Position numbers and translations under genes: made by a program
Part shown: one piece after another, positions 1,635 through 34,816 of the stretch
Layout of the letters: each line of letters begins with the position of its first letter
How positions within the stretch are numbered: position 1 is the stretch's first letter
DNA from: Thermoflexus hugenholtzii JAD2
GTDB lineage: Bacteria > Chloroflexota > Anaerolineae > J036 > Brachytrichaceae
Length of the DNA stretch: 36,367 nt
NCBI GenBank assembly: GCA_945877855.1
Contig: CAMDWA010000028.1
Location: 1-36,367 of the forward strand
Direction of reading: 5' to 3'
Notes under the pieces: generated by a model
Seen by the model: the letters and a program-made list of their open reading frames with translations, nothing else
Database searches by the model: none
What the model was told of the DNA's origin: nothing

Positions 1635-4478
1635 TTACCGCACCTCAATCACCCCCGCCCACCAACCTTGACCCCCCACCAACAAACGCTCGCCCGAATA
1701 AGGCAAATAGAAGCCGACACGCAACTGATACTGACCGAGCGGCACATTGTCCAAGCCAAGCATGCGCTCGTCACGCACCCATTCACCCGCCGCCCAGCGC
1801 GAGGTGGGATAAGCCCCATTGAGCGGCTGCCCATCGTTTTGCGCCACCAAGCGCCCCGTTTTGGGGTCGATGAGATGCACAAACACCACATAATCTTGCT
1901 CGATGGGCTGCAACGAGTGCCAATGGAGTGCAAGTTGCAGGTTGCAAGTTGTGGCTTTCATCTCACACGCTGTCATATCAAACCCCGCCAATTCGATCAC
2001 GCCGCCCATAACCGCACCCACCCGCACCTGCGGCGAGGCCACCGCAAAGTTGCGCGGCGGGGCATTCACCGTAATCGCGCCCAAGTCGGCCAACAGCTTG
2101 CCATCGGCCAACACCTGCAATTGATAATCGCCAGCAGCCAAATTGCGCGGTAAGCGTAATTGATAACGGTCGAGCAACGCCAAGTTGGGCGGCCATTCGG
2201 CAAAGGGCAAACGGGCGCGGGCGGGTGCGCCATCAAACAAAGTAACAAGGCTTGGCCCAAGCAACTGCACCTTGAATGTGGCATTTGGCATGGGTTGGGC
2301 TGCCCCTTGCCAACACAGGTCTAGATTCAGCAACGCCCCCGTGTTTAAAGTGCGCTCGCGCAATTGCCACGCGCTTAAGGTTGCACCATTGGGCAAATGG
2401 GTTTGGGTGCTGGTGTAGGGGGCAGCGCTGCAAATGGGCACGGCGGCTGTCACAGGGGGGCGGGGCAATGGGGCGCTCAGTTTGCCAAACGGCAACACCA
2501 GCTCTAGCCCAGCAAATTGCTCATTGGGGCCAACCCGCGGCGGCACATCTTTGGTGTTTGGGTTAAAAAAGCTGATGCCGATTTGATAATCGCCAACCGG
2601 TGGGGTTCCGGTCGGCGGCGGCAATTCGATCTGGTCAAACACAATCTCACCCACCGTCCAATCGGCGGTGGGGTAATGAAATGGGTTGGCACGCACCCAT
2701 TCGCCCGACTCGGCATGAAACAGCCGCGCTACCAACTGCAACGGCTGCCCAATCTGGGCCATCGGCTCCCAGATCACGGTTGCCACACACGGCCCTTGCA
2801 CATGACATTCGCCAAATTTTTGAGCATCGCGCACTTTGACGATGTGGGCAAAATCGGCGGCGGGCGCGGGCAATTGGGCGCGAATGGCCGCGATATCGGC
2901 CTCGCGTAGCCGCATCACACGGGCGGCAACTACGCCATCGGGCGCGGTCAAGAGCGTATCGGTTTGCCAACGGCTGGTGATGAGCGTTGAATAGGGGGCG
3001 GGCGGGTCAACGAAGGTGGGCAAATAATAGAGCGCGTCGCCCTTGGGCGGCAGCACCAGCGTCGCCCCGCCGGTCAGCCATTTCACCTGCCCAAAACGCT
3101 GGGTCAGCGCCGCCACGGTCGGCGATTGATAATGGATGGAGGCGACATACAGCGTGGTGTTTTGCACATCGGCAACACTGCGGCGCTGCAAATCTTGCCC
3201 AATCACAGTCATATTGCCATCGGTGGCAACGAATAAATCGGGCGAGTGATTCCAGCGTGAGTAGCGGTTCCATGCTAGCAAACCAAGCATCGCCGCTGCG
3301 CACATCAACCCAATTTGCAGCCAGCGCCGCGAAATAGTGTGGGGGGGTAACAAACTGTGCAACCCATTAAACAGCGTCACACCGCCATAACCAATCACCG
3401 GTGCGAGAAAGGTCCAAACACCGATCATGCGAATATTGCTAGGGATGATGTCTTTGACCGCCAAGGCGCTGGGCACAAGCATGATTACTAGCCCGGACAA
3501 CAATAACGCCCGCGTGGCATAAACCTCCGAGGTCTTAAAGACCTCGGAGGTTTTTTGTGGGATGAGTAGCGTGATTACCCCAATTAACCCAAACAATGAG
3601 AAAACTTCGCCACTCAGCGGCAGGCCCGGCAGGTTATAGCGCACATTAGGGTCGCCGAAGTTGGGCAAAAACAAGCCGAGCCAACATTGCCACCATGCCC
3701 ACGCCACCTCGCGCCAGCCCGCACTACCACTCACTTGGTCGAGCCGCGCCGAAAAAATATCGGGGTTTTGAATAAAAAACCAGCCCAATGGCGCAAACAC
3801 TATTGCCGCCACAAGCCCCATCAACCCCACCCGTGCCAAACGCTGACCACACCCACGCCGGGCAGACACAGCCAACCACACCAATAACGCCAAGGCGACC
3901 GGAATAGGAAACAAACGCGCCGCCAAATAAGTATAGGCGACCAAACCGAGAAAAACACCCGCCGCCGCAAACCAACGCCAGCGTCCCGTATTCATGCCGC
4001 GCCATAGCGCCATAAGCACCAACGCCTGCACCACCGGTTGTGAGCCAGCGCGATAGCCATAACGCGCAAAAATGAGCGGCGCAATGCTGACAGCCAGCCA
4101 AAACGCGGCGATCAGGGCGATGGCATTGCGCTGAGGGTGCGCGGCAAACAACGAGCGCGTCATTGAAAAAGTGGCGGCGATGCCGATGAGGCTGAGCATG
4201 GCCGAAGCAAGGCGCGTACCCCAAGTGGCGTTATCGGCCATCATCAACCAAGGCGCGGCCCAATATAAAAAGCCCACCTCACGCCCGACAAAGGCCCGCA
4301 CAAAAATAGGCCGGTCTCCGTTATAGGCAATATCGCGGATGTTTAACACGTAGGCGGCTTCGTCGTAATGCAGCCCATGGGCAAGGGTAGTGATATCGGT
4401 CAGGCGCAATAACGCCGCCACCAGTAAAATCAAGGTGGCAAGCCATAAGGTGGTGCGGGCATCAGGTCGGCGCAACAT
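1635..4478 (-). CDS. GT-C superfamily membrane glycosyltransferase (ArnT/PMT_2-like, GT39/GT83-like) with a large C-terminal extracytoplasmic domain
   Basis: 947 aa with about 12-13 predicted TM helices in the N-terminal 450 aa, an HYDEAAY (DE) motif in the first loop, and a long non-membrane C-terminal domain. Contains a 33-bp in-frame palindrome at 3521-3553. Confidence 0.6.
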   Translation of the reverse strand: MLRRPDARTTLWLATLILLVAALLRLTDITTLAHGLHYDEAAYVLNIRDIAYNGDRPIFVRAFVGREVGFLYWAAPWLMMADNATWGTRLASAMLSLIGIAATFSMTRSLFAAHPQRNAIALIAAFWLAVSIAPLIFARYGYRAGSQPVVQALVLMALWRGMNTGRWRWFAAAGVFLGLVAYTYLAARLFPIPVALALLVWLAVSARRGCGQRLARVGLMGLVAAIVFAPLGWFFIQNPDIFSARLDQVSGSAGWREVAWAWWQCWLGLFLPNFGDPNVRYNLPGLPLSGEVFSLFGLIGVITLLIPQKTSEVFKTSEVYATRALLLSGLVIMLVPSALAVKDIIPSNIRMIGVWTFLAPVIGYGGVTLFNGLHSLLPPHTISRRWLQIGLMCAAAMLGLLAWNRYSRWNHSPDLFVATDGNMTVIGQDLQRRSVADVQNTTLYVASIHYQSPTVAALTQRFGQVKWLTGGATLVLPPKGDALYYLPTFVDPPAPYSTLITSRWQTDTLLTAPDGVVAARVMRLREADIAAIRAQLPAPAADFAHIVKVRDAQKFGECHVQGPCVATVIWEPMAQIGQPLQLVARLFHAESGEWVRANPFHYPTADWTVGEIVFDQIELPPPTGTPPVGDYQIGISFFNPNTKDVPPRVGPNEQFAGLELVLPFGKLSAPLPRPPVTAAVPICSAAPYTSTQTHLPNGATLSAWQLRERTLNTGALLNLDLCWQGAAQPMPNATFKVQLLGPSLVTLFDGAPARARLPFAEWPPNLALLDRYQLRLPRNLAAGDYQLQVLADGKLLADLGAITVNAPPRNFAVASPQVRVGAVMGGVIELAGFDMTACEMKATTCNLQLALHWHSLQPIEQDYVVFVHLIDPKTGRLVAQNDGQPLNGAYPTSRWAAGEWVRDERMLGLDNVPLGQYQLRVGFYLPYSGERLLVGGQGWWAGVIEVR

Positions 4479-4502: not shown

Positions 4503-4625
4503 GGGAGCCGTGAGCCATGAGCTTTGAGCTTTGAGCCTTGAGCCTTGAGCTATGAGTCACAAGTCACGGCTCATGGCTCATGGCTCATAGCTCATGGCTC
4601 CAAAGCTCATGCCTCACGGCTCAAA
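4503..4625. repeat. Quasi-palindromic heptamer array (TGAGCNN x7, then its complement NNGCTCA x8) in the divergent promoter region
   Basis: Left arm tgagcca/tgagctt/tgagctt/tgagcct/tgagcct/tgagcta; the right arm is the complementary set cggctca/tggctca/tggctca/tagctca and so on. It sits between the GT gene start (4478, minus) and the CMD start (4642, plus). Confidence 0.75.
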
Positions 4626-8734: not shown

Positions 8735-8782
8735 CGCCGATTTCACACTCCCTCCGCAATCGGAGAGAGTGTGAAATCGGCG
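8735..8782. repeat. REP-like palindromic hairpin element (family 1) 3' of the flotillin gene
   Basis: cgccgatttcacactccctccg-caat-cggagagagtgtgaaatcggcg. Conserved termini GCCGATTTCAC/GTGAAATCGGC with a variable but self-complementary CTCCC/GGGAG core. Confidence 0.75.
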
Positions 8783-10015: not shown

Positions 10016-10075
10016 GCCGATTTCACTATCTCCCTCCCATAGCTACGCTGTGGGAGGGAGATAGTGAAATCGGCC
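10016..10075. repeat. REP-like palindromic hairpin element (family 1, full copy) 3' of the GNAT gene
   Basis: gccgatttcac-tatctccctcccatagc-tacg-ctgtgggagggagata-gtgaaatcggc, a perfect hairpin. Confidence 0.8.
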
Positions 10076-12774: not shown

Positions 12775-13784
12775 TCTAATCCAAACTCTAACGTCGAATG
12801 ACGATAAAGCTTGATTATATTCAGATCAAGTTGTAATAAGATTGTTGCCTCATTTTTACCTACATACTCTAACACCGACAGCACATAGCAAATGCTTTCA
12901 GGCCGTGCATTCTTCTTGTTGTTGTCCCGCACAACAATCCAAGGCCTAAACGAGGTATAGACCTTGCTAAACATCAATTCTTTACATTTGGTATACGAAT
13001 CCCAAAATGCTTGGCTTTTGGCATCCATTAGGCTAATTTTCCATTGTTTCAATGGGTTATCAGCCCGTGAATCAAAACGTCATTTTTGCTCCTCTTTCGA
13101 GATCAAAAACCAAAATTTGATCAGCGTGACACTGTCTTCATACAACCTATGCTTATATTCGGTCACTTGGCGAATAAATTGCTCATATTGTTCGGGTGCG
13201 CAAAAGCCATTGACCGACTCGACGACAGCGCGGTTATACCAACTGCGGTCAAAAAACACAATCTCACCGCAATTTGGCAATTGGCACGTGTAACGCTGAA
13301 AATACCATTGCCCCACTTCTTCTTCGGTCGGCTTGGGCCAAGCCACCACTCGCAAGGCACGCGGGTTCATATGCTCGGTAAAGCGGCGAATGGCCCCGCC
13401 CTTACCGGCGGCATCGCGGCCCTCGAACAAAATCGCCACACGCCGTTTTTTCTCTTGCACCCAGCGTTGCAGTTTCACCAATTCGATCTGTAGCTTTTGC
13501 AATTCGTTCTCATAATTGAGCAACTCGACAATTTTTTGCGGGTTAATCTCCTTCGACTGCAGCAAACTAAACAGATCACGCGGCGACTGCACGCTGATCA
13601 AATCTTTGTAGGTTAGAAATGGCGCATCGGGGTTACTGGGCGGCGTCATGGGCAAGGCTGGCGGCACTTTTGGGGGCAACTTGGCGGCTGCGGGTTTGGG
13701 CGCAGCTTTTTTGCGGCGCTTTGGCTTGTCGCTGTTCGGGTTGTTGTTTGGGTCGCTGGGGGATGGAAGTGAAGCTTGAGACAT
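12729..13784 (-). pseudogene. ppk2: Polyphosphate kinase 2 (PPK2) interrupted by a single in-frame TGA
   Basis: Upstream ORF (to 13080) has the PPK2 Walker A FEGRDAAGKGG and ...FWFLISKEEQK. A TGA at 13080-13082 is followed in the same frame by RFDSRADNPLKQWKISLMDAKSQAFWDSYTK...PWIVVRDNNKKNARPE, the conserved PPK2 C-terminus. Start taken at MSQASL (13784). The ORF is otherwise intact. Confidence 0.65.
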
Positions 13785-13869
13785 AAGAATGTGTGGGATA
13801 AAACAAAATAAAAACACCTCGTGCAAAAATCACACGCCGTAGACAGCATATTCTGCCCTTGTTCATCAC

Positions 13870-14840
13870 TCACCCCCCTGATGGGTAGCACGGCACTGGC
13901 TTGTTGGATAGTGCACAACAACCTCACAAGACCAGTCCGCGTTGACGCAAATGCAGCACTCACCCTGCTATCAATTGAGGCGGTGGGCGCGTTTGTCTGG
14001 CTTGCTTGCGCGGCTCGTGCGGGGGCAGATGCCCAGCAACTGACAGTTGCTGGGCATCTACTCACCCTTAATTGATGGCAAACGTAACACTCACCACGCC
14101 ATCAATTGAGGCAGTGATGGGGTTAGTCTGGCGTGCTTGCGCGGCTCATGCGGGTGCAGATGCACCGCACCTCGCAGGTGCGGCGCATCTACTCACCCCA
14201 CGTTGGTGGCAAATGCAACGCTCACCCCGCCCTCAATTGAGGCAGTGATGGGGTTAGTCTGGCTTGCTTGCGCGGCTCGTCCGGATGCAGATGCACCGCA
14301 CCTCGCAGGTGCGGCGCATCTACTCACCCTTAAATTGATGGCAATGCAACGCTTACCCCGCCCTCAATTGAGGCAGTGGGCGCGGTCATTTGGCTTGCTT
14401 GCGCGGCTCGTGCGGGGGCAGATGCCCAGCAACTGACAGTTGCTGGGCATCTACTCACCCTTAATTGATGGCAAACGTAACACTAACCCCGCCATCAATT
14501 GAGGCAGTGACGGGGTTAGTCTAGCTTGCTTGCGCGGCTCATGCGGGTGCAGATGCGCCGCACCTGCGAGGTGCGGCGCATCTACTCACCCTTAAATTGG
14601 TGGCAAATGTAACACTCACCCTGCCCTCAATTGAGGCGGTGACGGGGTTAGTCTGGCGTGCTTGCGCGGCTCGTGCAGGTGCAGATGCCCAGCAACTGGC
14701 AGTTGCTGGGCATCTACTCACCCTTAAATTGATGGCAAATGCAACGCTCACCCCACCCTCAATTAAGGCGGTGGGCGCGGTCGTTTGGCTGGCTTGCGCG
14801 GATCGTGCGGGTGCAGATGCGCCGCACCTGCGAAGGGCGA
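13870..14840. repeat. Tandem array of about 7.4 units of ~131 bp (130-133 bp), each with two conserved hairpins and two alternating variants
   Basis: Unit starts (motif caattgagg) at 13971, 14104, 14234, 14365, 14496, 14628 and 14760. Variant A hairpin is gatgcccagcaactg-aca-cagttgctgggcatc; variant B hairpin is gatgcgccgcacct-gcg-aggtgcggcgcatc. A second hairpin, aattgatggc...gcc(a/c)tcaatt, spans the unit junctions. Confidence 0.85.
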
Positions 14841-14888
14841 CGACGACATCTCTTTGCCAATATGACACCCCTGCCCCCCACGGCCGGG

Positions 14889-14925
14889 CCGCGCTCCGCG
14901 CGGGCAGAGGGGTGCTCCCCTCTGC
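14889..14925 (-). other. Two adjacent GC-rich hairpins 45-80 nt downstream of the NACHT-FGE gene stop (DGR-type post-VR hairpins)
   Basis: ccgcgc-tcc-gcgcgg (14889-14903) and gcagagggg-tgct-cccctctgc (14904-14925; 8-9 bp stem with a 4-nt loop). Confidence 0.5.
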
Positions 14926-14968
14926 ACTCCCCCTTGATACCAGATAACCCAGAGCACCAAAGACCCGA

Positions 14969-17839
14969 TTAACCGGAGGCCCGAGCGGAGAATCGGGGCG
15001 CACTACTCACCAAACGAAAACCGTCGTTGCTGTCACGGATGTCTACATGGGAGTCGTCACGGACCGCCGCCCGCGCATCCGTATCATAGTTATACCACGA
15101 CCCGCCGCGCACGACCCGCTTTTTTATATTTTCTATACTTGGGTCTTCACGTTCCAAATTCGCCTGATATGGATACGCTAAGTAAGCACTGCTCGTCCAT
15201 TCCCACACATTACCGCATAAATCGCTAATGCCTTCAGGCGTTTCGCCCTCGGCAAAGAGACCAATCGGGGTGGTGCGACGAATATGACGCTCGAACGTAT
15301 TGCATTGACTGGCTTCAAATTTTTCGCCATACGCATAGGCACGCGCCCGCCCGCGCCGGTCAGGTTGACCCCGCGCTGCGGCCTCCCACTGCGCTTCGCT
15401 CGGCAAAACATAGCGGCTGCCAATTTGGGCACTCAGCCACAAACCATAGGCCCGCGCCTCATGCCAACATACCCCCACCACCGGCTGGCTGGGCTGGTTA
15501 AAGGCGCTGTCTTCCCAAAACCGCGGCTGCAGCGGCACCTCACCCATCGGAAAGGTTTTAGCCAACCACGCTTCAAAGGCCTCATCACTCCAATTGCGAA
15601 GCGTATGCCAAGCTCGCGCTTGGGTTGAGGTGCAGCGTTGTTGCGCCAATAAATGGTCGATATAGTCCTCCTCCCAGCTTTTTATAGCTTGTCTGCTGCT
15701 TCGCCAGCCCTCGCGCTGGCCTGCCACCGCACCTTCGGGGGTGCGAAAATAGCTTGCGGCTGGCGTATCCCACCAACGGGCATCGCTATAACCACCCGCA
15801 CGCATAAAACAAGCAAATTCGGCATTGGTGACCGGAAACTTACCCATGCGAAATGCATCCAACTTGACGCGGTGCACATGCTTAGCATTATCATACGACT
15901 GGTCTTGGTCGCCCAGCACATAGTCACCGGCCTCAATGGCGATCATGGGCGGCAACAGATATTCATGCCCCAGCTTGCCCATGCGCCGCTCAAAACGCGG
16001 GTCGCCCAGCCCCCCCAACGCCTCACCGGCGGCAATCCGCGCCCGTAGGTCGGCGTTGCGGTCTTGGCTGCGGGCAATCAAGCCTTGCTGCAACTCGTGC
16101 AACAAGGTGGTCGCCAGCTTGGGCTTGACCTGCGCCGCCACCTCGGCCGCCAACGGCAAGTTGAGCGGCATCAGGCTGGCAATCAGCGCATTCGGCTGCT
16201 CACTCAGTTGGGCCGCCAATTTCAGCGTTTCGGCCCAGCCGCTGCGATCGAGCGGCGGCAATGGCTCATAATCTTGGGCGGTTGCCAGCCACTGCGCCAA
16301 ACTCGGCTGCACCGCCTCGGCCTGCCACGCAATCGCCGCCAGCGGCGCATCAAATTGGCGGGCCGCACGGCGGGCCGCAAAAAATTCTTGCAGCAATTGA
16401 TGATAAAACCAAAACTCCTCGCGTTGGCGATCTTCATCTAGCACCGTCAGGGCCACGCCTGCCGTCAGCACCTCGCGCGCCCGTGGGTGTTGCAACACGT
16501 CGCAGGCGCGGGCTTCGTCCAACGTCACCCGCCCACCCGCGCCAGCCAGCCCTTGGCATTGCATGGCATAGGCCAATTCGCTTAGCTTGGGCATGAGCAA
16601 CCCGCGTTCGGGCAAACGCAGGTTGGTTTGGGTATCAACACGGGTGACATCTTCACGGTCACGCAGGTCGAATAGCGCTTCGTCCAGCAGCAGTGCATTC
16701 TTGCCCTCCACCTCGCGGCGGGCGGCGCGCCGCACCAGCTCGGCAAATAACTCGGCGCGGCTAGCCGGAATTTGCCCGGCCCGCTCATTCACCAAATCGC
16801 ACAATATTTTGGCGAAATAAGGCGTGGCATATAACGCAAGTTGCTCAGGCTGGTCCTTGATCTTGCCCCATATCGCAGCGGCGTGTTTGGGCGTATGTTG
16901 CTGCAAAAACGCCTCAAGCTGAACCGCATTGAGCACCTTCAGCGTGATCTGGCGCACATCCACATCGTCTTTCACGCTTAGGGTTTGGCTATAGTCGAGG
17001 CTGCGGCAGGTAAACACGGCGCGATTGCCCGATGGCAGGTCATCGCGCAAAAAATCGCGCCAGCGTTCCACCTGTTTGCCATATACCGCCCCGTTTGGGT
17101 GTGGCATCTCGTTCAGTGCATCCAACAACAGCAACACACACCCTTGCGCCAAAAAATAATCGAGCGGCGGCAGGGTGACATGAAAGCGCTTCAGCGTTTG
17201 CTGCCATTGTTGCGCCAGCCACTCGGCTGGGTCGGGCGCGTCGGGCGTGTATTTGTTGAGTGTAACAAACAATGTCACACTCAGCTGGGGTTGGTCTGCC
17301 GCCAAATACTCGGTCGCGCTTTGCCATTGCAGGCGGCGCAGCAAGGTGGTTTTGCCGCCGCCCGGCACCCCCAGCAGCACCAGCGACGGGTCGGTGATTT
17401 CCGCATCCGCCAGAACCTCGCTCAGGTCTTGGTAATCGTGGTCGCGCTCGGCAAAGCTCAGGCTGGTGTCGGTTTTTTGGCGGTCGAGCAGCCGCATCCG
17501 CACAAAACGGGTGTCAATTTGGCGCTTTTGGGCCAAATCTTTCGCCACTGCGCGATGATATGCCGTCAATGCGGCTTGGGTGGCGGCGGGGTCGGGCGCG
17601 GGTTGGGCATCGGCAAAGCTGATATTCGGGCGGGCCTCACGCACGGCTTGCAGTAATTTGGCATAATCGCCACGCGATTCGCAATGCTTAATCAAGTTCA
17701 TGGCGAACTTGGGTTGGGTATTGCGCTCAAAATCCTCGTCTCCAATCCCCAACTCAAAACACAACAGTTCGAGTTCGTCTGTTTTGAAATGCGCCTTCAA
17801 TGCCGCATAAAGTTGTTGCTGGGTTGGGGTATGGGGCAT
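14969..17839 (-). CDS. STAND NTPase: N-terminal death-like/effector-associated helical domain, NACHT P-loop NTPase, HEAT-like repeats and a C-terminal FGE-sulfatase (SUMF1-like, C-type-lectin fold) domain
   Basis: Walker A LLGVPGGGKTTLL, a NACHT-type Walker B LLLLDALNEM, and a HEAT-like AAGEALGGLGDPR. FGE motifs: HRVKLDAFRMGKFPVTNAEF, GNVWEWTSS, RVVRGGSW...GFRLV. The N-terminus carries LxxALKAHFxxxELELLCFELGIGDEDF. Confidence 0.8.
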   Translation of the reverse strand: MPHTPTQQQLYAALKAHFKTDELELLCFELGIGDEDFERNTQPKFAMNLIKHCESRGDYAKLLQAVREARPNISFADAQPAPDPAATQAALTAYHRAVAKDLAQKRQIDTRFVRMRLLDRQKTDTSLSFAERDHDYQDLSEVLADAEITDPSLVLLGVPGGGKTTLLRRLQWQSATEYLAADQPQLSVTLFVTLNKYTPDAPDPAEWLAQQWQQTLKRFHVTLPPLDYFLAQGCVLLLLDALNEMPHPNGAVYGKQVERWRDFLRDDLPSGNRAVFTCRSLDYSQTLSVKDDVDVRQITLKVLNAVQLEAFLQQHTPKHAAAIWGKIKDQPEQLALYATPYFAKILCDLVNERAGQIPASRAELFAELVRRAARREVEGKNALLLDEALFDLRDREDVTRVDTQTNLRLPERGLLMPKLSELAYAMQCQGLAGAGGRVTLDEARACDVLQHPRAREVLTAGVALTVLDEDRQREEFWFYHQLLQEFFAARRAARQFDAPLAAIAWQAEAVQPSLAQWLATAQDYEPLPPLDRSGWAETLKLAAQLSEQPNALIASLMPLNLPLAAEVAAQVKPKLATTLLHELQQGLIARSQDRNADLRARIAAGEALGGLGDPRFERRMGKLGHEYLLPPMIAIEAGDYVLGDQDQSYDNAKHVHRVKLDAFRMGKFPVTNAEFACFMRAGGYSDARWWDTPAASYFRTPEGAVAGQREGWRSSRQAIKSWEEDYIDHLLAQQRCTSTQARAWHTLRNWSDEAFEAWLAKTFPMGEVPLQPRFWEDSAFNQPSQPVVGVCWHEARAYGLWLSAQIGSRYVLPSEAQWEAAARGQPDRRGRARAYAYGEKFEASQCNTFERHIRRTTPIGLFAEGETPEGISDLCGNVWEWTSSAYLAYPYQANLEREDPSIENIKKRVVRGGSWYNYDTDARAAVRDDSHVDIRDSNDGFRLVSSAPRFSARASG
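14995..15112 (-). other. Putative DGR variable region (VR) at the C-terminus of the FGE domain
   Basis: RGGSW-YNYDTDARAAVRDDSHVDIRDSNDGFRLV. The scaffold positions match the canonical FGE-type template pattern RGGSWNNN..AR.A.R......GFR, and the variable codons are mostly NNC/NNT (tat aac tat gat...gac tcc cat gta gac atc cgt gac agc aac gac), as expected for AAC/AAT-derived mutagenesis. Confidence 0.5.
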
Positions 17840-24965: not shown

Positions 24966-25068
24966 GTGGCAGGAGGCAAGTGGCAGGTAGCAAGTGGCAA
25001 GTAAAAAGTATCTAACTACTTTGCACTTTGCACTTTGCACTTGCCACTTGCCACCTGCCACCTGCCCC
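24966..25068. repeat. Quasi-palindromic heptamer array (GTGGCAR x~7 / YTGCCAC x~7) followed by a T-tract; probable terminator or attenuator between the anti-sigma and ABC genes
   Basis: gtggcag gaggcaa gtggcag gtagcaa gtggcaa ... tttgcac x3 ttgccac x2 ctgccac ctgcccc, then tttttt and the ABC ATG at 25075. Confidence 0.75.
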
Positions 25069-25074
25069 TTTTTT

Positions 25075-25998
25075 ATGTTCGTTATCGAAACCCAACACCT
25101 GCAAAAACAATTTGGCAATAAGCTAGCCGTTGCCGATCTTACGCTCACGGTCAACTCAGGCGAGGTGTTTGGGTTTCTGGGGCCAAATGGGGCAGGTAAA
25201 AGCACCTCAATTAAAATGTTGTTGGGGTTAGTCAAACCCAGTGCGGGCAACTGTTGGGTATTGGGGTTGCCGCCCGGCAATGTGCAAGCTCGCCGCAAAA
25301 TTGGCTTTTTGCCCGAGCATTTTCGTTTTCACGATTGGCTGACCGGACGCGAGTTTCTGCATTTTCACGGGCGGTTATATGGCATGTCGGGCCAAGCACT
25401 CAAACAACGGATCGAGACATTGCTGGCGCGGGTCGCCTTGTTAGAAGCGGGCGACCGCAAATTGCAACAATATAGCAAAGGCATGTTGCAGCGCATCGGG
25501 TTGGCAATGGCCTTGCTCAATCACCCCCAAATTGTCTTTTTAGACGAGCCAACCTCAGGGCTTGACCCATTAGGCCGCCTGCTGGTGCGCGATATCATCA
25601 CGGAAATACGCAACGAAGGCACTACTGTCTTTCTAAATTCGCACTTGCTCAGCGAAATCGAAGTGACGTGTAACCGCGTGGTTTTTCTCAAGCGCGGCAA
25701 TGTGGTGCGCGAAATCAACTTAAAAGACAATGAAATTCATATCAACGAACTCGAACTAAAATTGGGGCCGGTCGATGACAGCATTTTGCAAGGGTTAGCC
25801 CAATTTGGCAGCAATGCCCATCGAGATGGCGACCTCATTCGCATGAATATTCAAGACGAAGCCAGCCTGCCACAACTGGCCCGTTGGCTGGTCGGCCAAG
25901 GTTGCGAAATTTATCGCCTCGCTGCCCATCACCCATCGCTTGAACAACTGTTTGTTGAAACCATGACCGAAGAAAATAAGTTAACCATTGATGGTTAA
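25075..25998 (+). CDS. ABC transporter ATP-binding protein (ABC-2 / exporter type)
   Basis: Walker A GPNGAGKST, signature YSKGMLQRIGLA, and Walker B IVFLDEPTSGLD. Confidence 0.85.
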   Translation: MFVIETQHLQKQFGNKLAVADLTLTVNSGEVFGFLGPNGAGKSTSIKMLLGLVKPSAGNCWVLGLPPGNVQARRKIGFLPEHFRFHDWLTGREFLHFHGRLYGMSGQALKQRIETLLARVALLEAGDRKLQQYSKGMLQRIGLAMALLNHPQIVFLDEPTSGLDPLGRLLVRDIITEIRNEGTTVFLNSHLLSEIEVTCNRVVFLKRGNVVREINLKDNEIHINELELKLGPVDDSILQGLAQFGSNAHRDGDLIRMNIQDEASLPQLARWLVGQGCEIYRLAAHHPSLEQLFVETMTEENKLTIDG

Positions 25999-26078
25999 TG
26001 ATTAATGGTCAATGATTAATGGTTAATGATTAATGGTTAATGATTAATGATTAATGATTAATGATTAATGATTAATGG
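25995..26078. repeat. Heptanucleotide microsatellite TTAATGR x12 spanning the ABC ATPase stop codon and the permease start codon
   Basis: Units counted directly as ttaatga, ttaatgg, tcaatga, ttaatgg, ttaatga, ttaatgg, ttaatga x5, ttaatgg. The ATPase TAA (25996-98) is in unit 1 and the candidate permease ATG (26068) is in unit 11. Confidence 0.85.
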
Positions 26079-26972: not shown

Positions 26973-27075
26973 GAGCATCCCCAAAAGACGTAACGCCGAA
27001 CGCACTGTCACTTTGTGTTTGAAGAGGGCAAAGCCTTCTTCAAACACAAAGTGACAGTGCGTTCGGCGAAAATAG
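26973..27075. repeat. ~100-bp palindromic MITE-like element (family 2, copy 1, inverted orientation)
   Basis: cgccgaacgcactgtcactttgtgtttgaagagggcaaagccttcttcaaacacaaagtgacagtgcgttcggcg plus the tail ggggatgc...cgtcttttgg. Near-identical to the copies at 32410 and 34717. Confidence 0.8.
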
Positions 27076-30580: not shown

Positions 30581-30634
30581 CGCCAATTTCACGATCCCCA
30601 CTCAGCATAGCTAAGTGGGGATCGTGAAATCGAC
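30581..30634. repeat. REP-like palindromic hairpin element (family 1 variant) 3' of the DUF2177 gene
   Basis: gccaatttcac-gatccccact-cagcatagc-taagtggggatc-gtgaaatcgac. Confidence 0.7.
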
Positions 30635-32409: not shown

Positions 32410-32510
32410 TTTTCGCCGAACTCACTATCATTTTGTGTTTGGAGAGGGCTTTGCCCTCTCCAAACACAAAATGATAGTGAGTTCGGCATTACGTCTTTTG
32501 GGGACGCCCC
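32410..32510. repeat. ~100-bp palindromic MITE-like element (family 2, copy 2)
   Basis: ttttcgccgaactcactatcattttgtgtttggagagggctttgccctctccaaacacaaaatgatagtgagttcggcattacgtcttttggggacgcccc. Confidence 0.8.
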
Positions 32511-34716: not shown

Positions 34717-34816
34717 TTTCGCCGAACTCACTATCACTTCGTGTTTGGAGAAGGCAAAGCCTTCTCCAAACACAAAGTGATAGTGAGTTCGGCATTACGT
34801 CTTTTATGGTCACCCC
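34717..34816. repeat. ~100-bp palindromic MITE-like element (family 2, copy 3)
   Basis: ttttcgccgaactcactatcacttcgtgtttggagaaggcaaagccttctccaaacacaaagtgatagtgagttcggcattacgtcttttatggtcacccc. Confidence 0.8.

Follow-up and report, generated by a model that had tools for sequence, protein, structure and literature searches.

The locus

We describe a 33-bp palindrome that lies in-frame within a protein-coding gene of Thermoflexus hugenholtzii JAD2 (Chloroflexota, Anaerolineae). The gene is carried on a stretch of 36,367 nucleotides (assembly GCA_945877855.1, contig CAMDWA010000028.1, positions 1 to 36,367 of the forward strand), referred to throughout as the window. The palindrome, at positions 3521-3553, is probably a solitary member of a dispersed family of repetitive extragenic palindromic (REP) type, resembling the REP doublets that form longer hairpins (REPINs). 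The features of the locus are as follows.

1635..4478, minus strand: host gene, encoding a 947-aa polytopic membrane protein, GT-C/ArnT/PMT-like by its sub-cutoff PMT_2 score, the names of its homologues and its hydropathy
3521..3553, no strand assigned: putative 33-bp REP doublet (REPIN-like palindrome), AAACCTCCGAGGTCT-TAA-AGACCTCGGAGGTTT, matching the family consensus near transposase genes
3521..3535, no strand assigned: left 15-nt arm, a putative single REP unit, 7+1+7 near-palindrome AAACCTC C GAGGTCT; variants keep both levels of symmetry
3536..3538, no strand assigned: 3-nt centre, TAA on the plus strand, variable in sequence and predicted to form a 3-nt hairpin loop
3539..3553, no strand assigned: right 15-nt arm, AGACCTC G GAGGTTT
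3523..3533, no strand assigned: internal direct repeat ACCTCSGAGGT, copy 1, 18 nt from copy 2
3541..3551, no strand assigned: internal direct repeat ACCTCSGAGGT, copy 2
3522..3554, minus strand: 11 codons, K-T-S-E-V-F-K-T-S-E-V, residues 309-319, in the frame best tolerated by long open reading frames
3551..3556, plus strand: run of six T (T6) after the hairpin, antisense to the gene, seen on inspection of the sequence

The arms, at 3521-3536 (AAACCTCCGAGGTCTT) and 3538-3553 (AAGACCTCGGAGGTTT), are 100% complementary around a central base at 3537. The first-pass annotation had called this in-frame element near-perfect, which proves too modest since the arms are perfect, and we find it better described as two 15-nt arms around a 3-nt centre. 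The repetition within the encoded peptide, KTSEVFKTSEV, had been put down to palindromy as such. That explanation is wrong: the arms of a palindrome are reverse complements on one strand and normally encode different peptides. Here they encode the same peptide because each arm is nearly self-complementary (ACCTC-S-GAGGT), and hence the arms also form a direct repeat with a spacing of 18 nt.

Chance is excluded as the source of the palindrome, since its 16-nt arms exceed both simulated and analytic expectation. Across 100 first-order Markov simulations of the window, in each of which the longest perfect odd-centre arm was recorded, that arm averaged 7.6 nt and reached a maximum of 12, and the analytic expectation for arms of at least 16 nt in the window is 8.5e-6. 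Folded as RNA, the sense strand gives a 15-bp stem with a 3-nt loop (-26.6 kcal/mol, z = -7.0). No meaningful Rfam match lies at 3521-3553, the sole gathering-score Rfam match in the window being a tRNA.

The initial description of the host gene as a glycosyltransferase finds only weak backing in the domain search (Pfam PMT_2, 20 bits against a gathering cutoff of 26.1). Homologues from Anaerolineae are annotated as ArnT-family or GT39, several of them with precomputed PF13231 or PF02366 matches. In the hydropathy profile of the protein, KTSEVFKTSEV falls within a hydrophilic dip flanked by two hydrophobic segments.

A repeat family dispersed across phyla

The element is far from private to this gene. 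We scanned a collection comprising one genome for each of 185,579 species with a pattern made of the 31-nt core and a free centre. This recovered 88 copies in 87 stretches, with up to 11 copies in one metagenome-assembled genome (MAG). The source assemblies number at least 42, as counted from the accession prefixes of 80 listed loci, and most are Anaerolineales and other Chloroflexota. Eight are otherwise labelled (Thiomargarita, Thiotrichaceae, Methylococcaceae, Limnohabitans, Ignavibacteriae, Chlorobiota, Chitinophagaceae and Balneola), and Gammaproteobacteria, Bacteroidota and Ignavibacteriota are thus among the labels. The Balneola record (L068) is a complete 3.5-Mb chromosome. GC content is 0.34-0.42 in six measured non-Chloroflexota loci, against 0.48-0.58 in the window, so the spread is not simply one of mis-binned Chloroflexota DNA, and the occurrence of an identical repeat under eight such labels argues for horizontal spread. 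Viral contigs contained no exact 33-mer and hence give no evidence for a phage vector.

The edges of the unit are sharp, with an A before the core in 85 of the 88 copies and a T after it in all 88, while the central base is free (A in 29, T in 28, C in 19 and G in 12). Outside the 33 bp nothing is conserved among these copies, and their flanks are unrelated. Degenerate copies in the same loci have 4-6 positions changed and remain fully paired (e.g., AGACTTCCGAAGTCT-TNA-AGACTTCGGAAGTCT and AAACCTGACAGGTCT-TAA-AGACCTGTCAGGTTT). They also retain the symmetry within each arm, every 15-nt arm being a 7+1+7 palindrome, and in two loci (L176 and L177) the spacer is expanded to 19-21 nt with the arms intact. 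From this pattern, the 33-mer consists of two self-complementary 15-nt units, set in inverted orientation 3 nt apart. As 33 nt is exactly 11 codons, the unit never shifts a reading frame. Its three frames encode KPPRS-x-RPRRF, TSEV-[F/L]-KTSEV and NLRGL-x-DLGG, and a stop codon arises in any of them only where the free central base makes one. The literature searched yielded nothing relevant for the peptide and DNA strings, and the repeat strings do not occur in the text supplements of two survey papers, one of them PMC6006769.

In the Thiotrichaceae MAG S06.Bin195 (L038, L043, L059, L041, L044, L060) and in Thiomargarita (L016), the 33-mer is nested in a repeat of about 130 bp that resembles a MITE (miniature inverted-repeat transposable element). 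This larger repeat has terminal inverted repeats of about 27 bp (GGTAGTGATGCAATGTGGGTGATAA) and two alternative internal modules. Such nesting in gammaproteobacterial MAGs implies that the palindrome also spreads as the passenger of another element.

Fold-back chimeras do yield perfect palindromes in some library types, and a hairpin adapter or chimeric join might in principle have created the element during sequencing or assembly. We give this next to no credence, and the data refute it. The element lies in-frame in conserved genes, recurs across many projects and assemblers (including the complete chromosome of L068), has natural variants with compensatory changes, and is encoded by more than 100 transposase and SMC proteins in the databases.

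A partner transposase

All open reading frames (ORFs) in the 87 copy-bearing loci were clustered to find recurrent neighbours. One recurrent family was non-syntenic, a protein of about 200 aa present in L001, L021, L042 and L068. The remaining clusters were syntenic orthologues, for example SMC, radical SAM, NACHT/FGE-sulfatase, PALP and aldo-keto reductase, and yielded no further candidate partner. Two of the four proteins match Pfam Y1_Tnp, the IS200-like Y1 transposases, at 24.6-25.9 bits (gathering cutoff 23). The best NCBIfam model is 'REP-associated tyrosine transposase' (RAYT; NF047646), at 52-68 bits, and the sole match to a solved structure is E. coli TnpA-REP (4ER8, E = 1e-6). The motifs H59-Y-H61 and Y117-I-H-x-N-P are invariant in the transposase alignment (A1).

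All four transposase genes carry the family palindrome inside their own coding sequence, in a loop directly after the HUH motif. The three Chloroflexota loci (L001, L021 and L042) have further flanking copies; next to the Balneola gene of L068 no such copy was detected. The product of this gene shares only 28% identity with the other three, yet the identical 33-mer occupies the equivalent place in a different reading frame. We also examined the 120 database proteins closest to these transposases (66-98% identity; JGI names many of them RayT). Of these, 68 have TSEV[F/L]KTSEV in this loop, 22 have a covarying TSEF-x-KNSEV type, and 112 fit a loose pattern. In Methylococcaceae GLR68 (L019, 1737-1904), a fragment of a transposase gene (42% identity over 67 aa) surrounds a copy of the palindrome, which suggests that a transposase gene has decayed in this gammaproteobacterial MAG.

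An independent sample was chosen in such a way that the palindrome could not bias it. The palindrome loop was deleted from eight transposases, these were aligned (A1), and 80 metagenome-contig loci were fetched with the patterns SYTK[AT][IY]NK plus an N-terminal motif. The family palindrome lies inside the coding sequence at 68 of these 80 loci, about 200 nt from the start. It also lies upstream of the start, no more than 120 nt away, at 47 of 77 loci (median about 18 nt), and downstream of the end, over the same distance, at 45 of 76 (median about 13 nt); all three positions are occupied together at 31 of 73.

Repeat and transposase are also linked in sequence. A consensus of A[AG]A[ACT][CT]TC-S-GA[AG]N[CT][CT]T, a 3-nt centre and the inverse is matched by 179 of 205 palindromes. 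Its positions 5, 11, 23 and 29 switch jointly between C/G and T/A, and all three central positions vary in transposase-proximal copies. Arms differ less within loci than between them, with 0.96 vs 2.40 mismatches for upstream against downstream copies and 1.42 vs 2.82 for flanking against internal copies. The exact 33-mer of the window stands on both sides of the transposase gene in L152 and just downstream of it in L100 and L155, while L167 has the same arms downstream of the gene with another 3-nt centre. The repeat family is tightly coupled, physically and in sequence, to a clade of Y1 HUH transposases with intact catalytic motifs.

Other palindromes of 33-35 bp, with the same nested 15+3+15 architecture and unrelated sequence (AGGAACCCGTTTTCT.., AGTCTCCCGGAGACT.., AGGCGACAGTCGCTT..), occur near transposase genes (L123 3120, L139 13, L167 1365, L117 3001). 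They may be sister repeat families of the same geometry.

Origin of the palindrome

We consider it probable, with good confidence, that the palindrome at 3521-3553 is a solo REP-type, REPIN-like repeat whose family is cognate to a transposase clade of the RAYT/TnpA-REP kind (class-2 HUH-Y1). Under this model, the repeat would fold into a hairpin on transiently single-stranded DNA, and a transposase encoded elsewhere in the genome would bind, cut and rejoin the hairpin into new sites. Binding and cleavage of the single-stranded hairpin are inferred by analogy with E. coli TnpA-REP (PMC3479197) and the IS200/IS605 enzymes. A copy would have entered, or been renewed in, the short loop between two transmembrane segments of the GT-C-like protein. 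This would predate the split of the window organism from two relatives whose versions of the protein show 81-85% identity to its own. Its internal direct repeats would then leave it prone to slippage deletions of 18 nt.

Several observations weigh against this interpretation. The 36-kb window holds neither a second copy nor a single arm of the family, and a tblastn search of it found no transposase of the clade, the only match being the palindrome-encoded peptide. The NCBIfam scores of the transposases fall below the curated equivalog cutoff of 80, so that they are related to the curated RAYT equivalog but stand outside it. The support for mobilisation by the transposase consists of association and covariation, and a clean empty site, sought among SMC orthologues to define the insertion junctions to the base, was not recovered. 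Lastly, the repeat lacks the GT[AG]G or CGTC foot tag of classical REPs, its ends being A[AG]AC...GT[CT]T; untagged REP-like families have already been acknowledged (PMC3733652).

The perfect inverted-repeat architecture would also suit a minimal MITE, made of two abutted terminal inverted repeats of a DDE-type insertion sequence and moved by a cut-and-paste transposase. The nesting of the 33-mer in a larger MITE-like repeat with terminal inverted repeats of about 27 bp, in Thiotrichaceae and Thiomargarita, also points that way. However, no target-site duplication is seen, and no conserved dinucleotide borders the unit outside its own fixed A and T. The sole recurrently adjacent family is a Y1 HUH transposase, belonging to a family that does not use terminal inverted repeats, and the arms are themselves palindromes, as fits REP doublets rather than terminal inverted repeats. 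We therefore regard a MITE as very unlikely.

Where the copies lie

Of the 88 dispersed copies, 53 lie outside open frames of at least 100 aa and 35 lie inside. Intergenic copies fall between two 3' ends in 19 cases, between a 3' and a 5' end in 16, and between two 5' ends in two; many lie 1-15 nt past a stop codon. A T-run or A-run adjoins 26 of the 88. In three loci (L003 ~1725, L076 ~6510, L087 ~55), copies stand within a few nucleotides of the 3' end of a tRNA-like gene (...GGTTCGAATCCCTCCCTCCCCGCCA). Judging from its T-arm and acceptor-like sequence, this neighbour looks like the same tRNA gene in each case, and the copies are at a terminator-like position.

Among the genes hosting such inside copies are those for SMC, a radical-SAM enzyme resembling HemN and a NACHT/FGE-sulfatase protein. 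Eleven of the 12 copies within open frames of at least 400 aa are in the TSEV frame (p = 4.7e-5 against one third), an excess that fits selection removing the basic frame and the Gly/Leu frame. As the unit adds 11 codons with no stop bar that of the free centre, copies that fall in surface loops of proteins in the mild hydrophilic frame, T-S-E-V-[F/L]-K-T-S-E-V, would survive selection.

The hinge of the essential gene SMC provides the fullest series of states, all at one codon-level position around residue 590 (Anaerolineales loci L046 and L170-L177). We compared this hinge loop in 120 Anaerolineales orthologues of 79-100% identity. The loop contains TSEV[F/L]KTSEV in 21 of these and a TSEF/KNSEV variant in four, and in 13 the arms are split by 6-7 extra residues. 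The others have loops of equal length in a graded series, NSNILQTSEI to QDEILRYEL to RNNLALSNPN, and the motif-free loops have the look of a decayed element, not of an empty site. DNA was read for eight orthologues chosen regardless of the palindrome. It revealed partly decayed copies of a different sequence variant (13/16 and 14/16 pairs), a one-arm remnant, loops without a recognisable remnant, and perfect 15-16-nt arms around a 19-21-nt centre. These states show that the 15-nt arm is the conserved unit. They also show a divided fate of copies within genes, which have decayed in certain lineages and in others remain perfect, through persistence or renewal.

History of the site in the host gene

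The states of the site among homologues of the host protein are as follows.

P0001, 99% identity to the window protein: perfect copy, the same as in the window
L049 (Anaerolineae bacterium AQU-02), 2922-3002, 81% to the window protein and 87% to P0002: perfect 33-mer, with a decayed copy (10/16 pairs) 18 nt downstream in the same loop
P0002, 85% to the window protein: AAACCTCCGAGGTTT, a 15-nt remnant, namely the 33-mer lacking 18 nt, with an additional AAA codon
P0003, 56% to the window protein: no trace of the element
Remaining homologues, about 117, with about 33-43% identity in the best alignment: no trace of the element

As the window, L049 and P0002 all bear the element or a remnant of it, the site was occupied before these three lineages split, with turnover since. 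The double element of L049 suggests re-insertion beside an older copy, and the remnant in P0002 arose by slippage between the internal direct repeats with the loss of 18 nt. We infer that the copy in this glycosyltransferase-like gene is a tolerated passenger.

The first-pass annotation had offered both a mini-insertion and a hotspot for slippage or deletion. The mini-insertion is borne out, since the segment is missing from orthologues of 56% identity or less and the identical 33-mer recurs in many settings unrelated to one another; no distant orthologue conserves the segment at the protein level on non-palindromic DNA. Slippage fits as a later event, at the 85%-identical P0002, but fails as an origin. 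Had the palindrome formed within this gene, whether by template switching, by slippage or by duplication-inversion, it would be a private feature. Slippage does occur here, as the deletion in P0002 and the two tandem copies in L049 attest. Yet the identical 33-mer occurs 88 times in unrelated surroundings, across at least 42 assemblies, and also beside transposase genes, and a local accident cannot recreate the same 32 fixed bases elsewhere. A local origin is thus refuted, and we accord it a negligible probability.

A further possibility is that a host-selected function, as a bidirectional terminator, mRNA stabiliser or protein-binding site, drives the spread, with the coding copy regulating its gene or blocking antisense transcription. 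To the eye, the hairpin in the window and its T6 run, which is present on the antisense strand only, resemble an intrinsic terminator for antisense transcription. The hairpin is strong (-26.6 to -28.7 kcal/mol), intergenic copies come right after stops, and a T-run or A-run accompanies the 26 copies noted above. Parts of the literature assign such roles to E. coli REPs, and in both SMC and this gene perfect copies persist at an unchanged codon position in lineages about 20% apart in protein sequence. Against this, most copies have no U-run, and a consensus terminator scan of the window did not call the site at 3521-3553. Nor can host function account for an identical sequence in different phyla, or for the tight coupling to a transposase gene. 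Copies also decay, as in the SMC orthologues read without bias (13-14/16 pairs, one-arm remnants or nothing), the second copy in L049 and the half-lost copy of P0002. We consider host function improbable as the driver of the spread, and regard it less as a competing origin than as a use the element may have gained secondarily. The window copy may have such a secondary role, be it as an RNA hairpin, in line with the cis-acting mRNA structure offered in the first-pass annotation, or as a terminator of antisense transcription, but the findings lend it no support and none of them calls for an RNA role.

Returning to the REP-type interpretation, we also speculate, with considerable doubt, that the family constitutes a distinct and still-active REP system. 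Such a system would be recognised without the GTAG guide, by way of a four-fold symmetric site (7+1+7, 3, 7+1+7), would move across phyla with its transposase, and would repeatedly re-occupy or repair the same codon-level sites in essential genes. The basis for re-occupation is threefold: the SMC hinge has perfect copies of different variants alongside decayed and split ones, the loop of the glycosyltransferase-like protein has, in a relative, a perfect copy beside a decayed one, and the transposase coding sequence is almost always occupied.

Relation to known systems

The closest known relatives are the REP/REPIN and RAYT (TnpA-REP) systems, or 'REPtrons' (Nunvar 2010; Bertels & Rainey 2011; Ton-Hoang/Messing 2012; Quentin et al. 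2018, PMC6006769). Shared features are a short hairpin repeat whose dispersed copies mostly lie a little downstream of genes, the pairing of units into inverted doublets with a longer hairpin, and a class-2 Y1 transposase gene (HUH, Y---NP) that is flanked by cognate repeats, with covarying repeat and transposase variants. As with the dispersed copies here, REPs are distributed near the 3' ends of genes, and occasional copies within ordinary genes have likewise been reported (PMC3733652). The present family differs from REPs in that the unit is only 15 nt and self-complementary, and the doublet is four-fold symmetric with a 3-nt spacer. It differs from REPtrons in the internal copy, which is near-universal in this transposase clade (112/120) rather than occasional. 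Accounts of REPIN-RAYT systems describe mostly vertical inheritance, whereas an identical repeat is found here in several phyla. A patchy distribution has also been attributed to horizontal transfer (PMC6006769), and the cross-phylum repeat fits this.

There is also a likeness to the TnpA-Y1 transposases of subclass 2.6 and class 3 (Quentin et al. 2018), whose genes are flanked by GTAG-less hairpins with copies elsewhere in the genome. Subclass 2.6 occurs mostly in Bacteroidetes and has the motifs NH[LIV]H and YIH[QN]NP (PMC6006769), which the Balneola protein of L068 matches (PNHLH, YIHNNP). The Chloroflexota clade differs, with T-H-Y-H, YIHANP, and F-Q in place of the W-Q motif. The 'atypical secondary structures' of those systems are described as weaker and as found only by manual inspection, in contrast to the perfect 15-bp stems here.

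Intrinsic (Rho-independent) terminators share the GC-containing stem-loop, the frequent position right past stops and, sometimes, flanking A- or T-runs. They are not conserved in sequence between genes or phyla, unlike this family, in which only 26 of 88 copies have a T- or A-run and the window copy lies within a coding sequence. Another parallel lies in the Rickettsia palindromic elements, reportedly described by Ogata et al. in 2000 as selfish palindromic DNA in-frame in protein-coding genes. They are said to resemble the present repeat in occupying many unrelated, even essential, genes in-frame and in encoding a tolerated surface-loop peptide. They reportedly differ in their length of about 100-150 bp, their restriction to Rickettsia and their lack of a known transposase partner, and the two share no sequence relationship. 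Overall, the REP/RAYT kind of system and REPs within genes are known; the present family is mildly unusual in its four-fold symmetry, in the internal copy found in nearly all transposase genes of the clade and in recurring with identical sequence in several phyla.

Other repeats in the window

The window contains further repeats. The first-pass annotation had counted the palindrome as the second case in the window of a hairpin within a coding sequence; the first case is probably the tandem array at 13947-14830. The array comprises 6.7 units of 131-bp period (83% matches) and overlaps the minus-strand ORFs 13646..14065 and 14539..15003. Each unit has its own 33-bp hairpin (AGATGC..-N3-..GCATCT), with compensatory changes between units and no Rfam match. 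A second family of near-perfect hairpins, of 43-75 bp, occurs at 106-148, 8735-8782, 10016-10074, 26994-27068, 30586-30630, 32415-32487 and 34721-34793. Its members share a common foot, GCCGA[AT][CT]TCAC[TA][AG]TC, with variable upper stems; all lie just downstream of ORFs, and they look like another REP-like family in the same genome. Lastly, intergenic heptanucleotide tandem repeats with inverted blocks (GAGCYWT, GGCAAGT and TGRTTAA types) are present at 4505-4600, 24975-25070 and 25981-26040. They recall the short tandem heptamer repeats of filamentous cyanobacteria.

Implications

These findings leave the general picture of REP/RAYT biology unchanged. What they add is an untagged REP family, compact and compatible with coding sequence, that is clearly linked to a transposase clade and occurs in phyla whose REP systems have received little study. 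If the pattern of re-occupation is true, it would point to site-directed re-insertion or gene conversion of REPs within coding sequence, and the copy built into the transposase gene might act as an autoregulatory site or as a master copy. With their perfect, decayed, split and half-deleted states, the sites in SMC and in the glycosyltransferase-like gene provide a natural time series for the gain, keeping and loss of in-gene repeats. For annotation, KTSEVFKTSEV in the host protein, and the similar TSEV[F/L]KTSEV in Chloroflexota proteins such as SMC, radical-SAM and NACHT, are to be read as repeat-derived insertions, and not as functional motifs.

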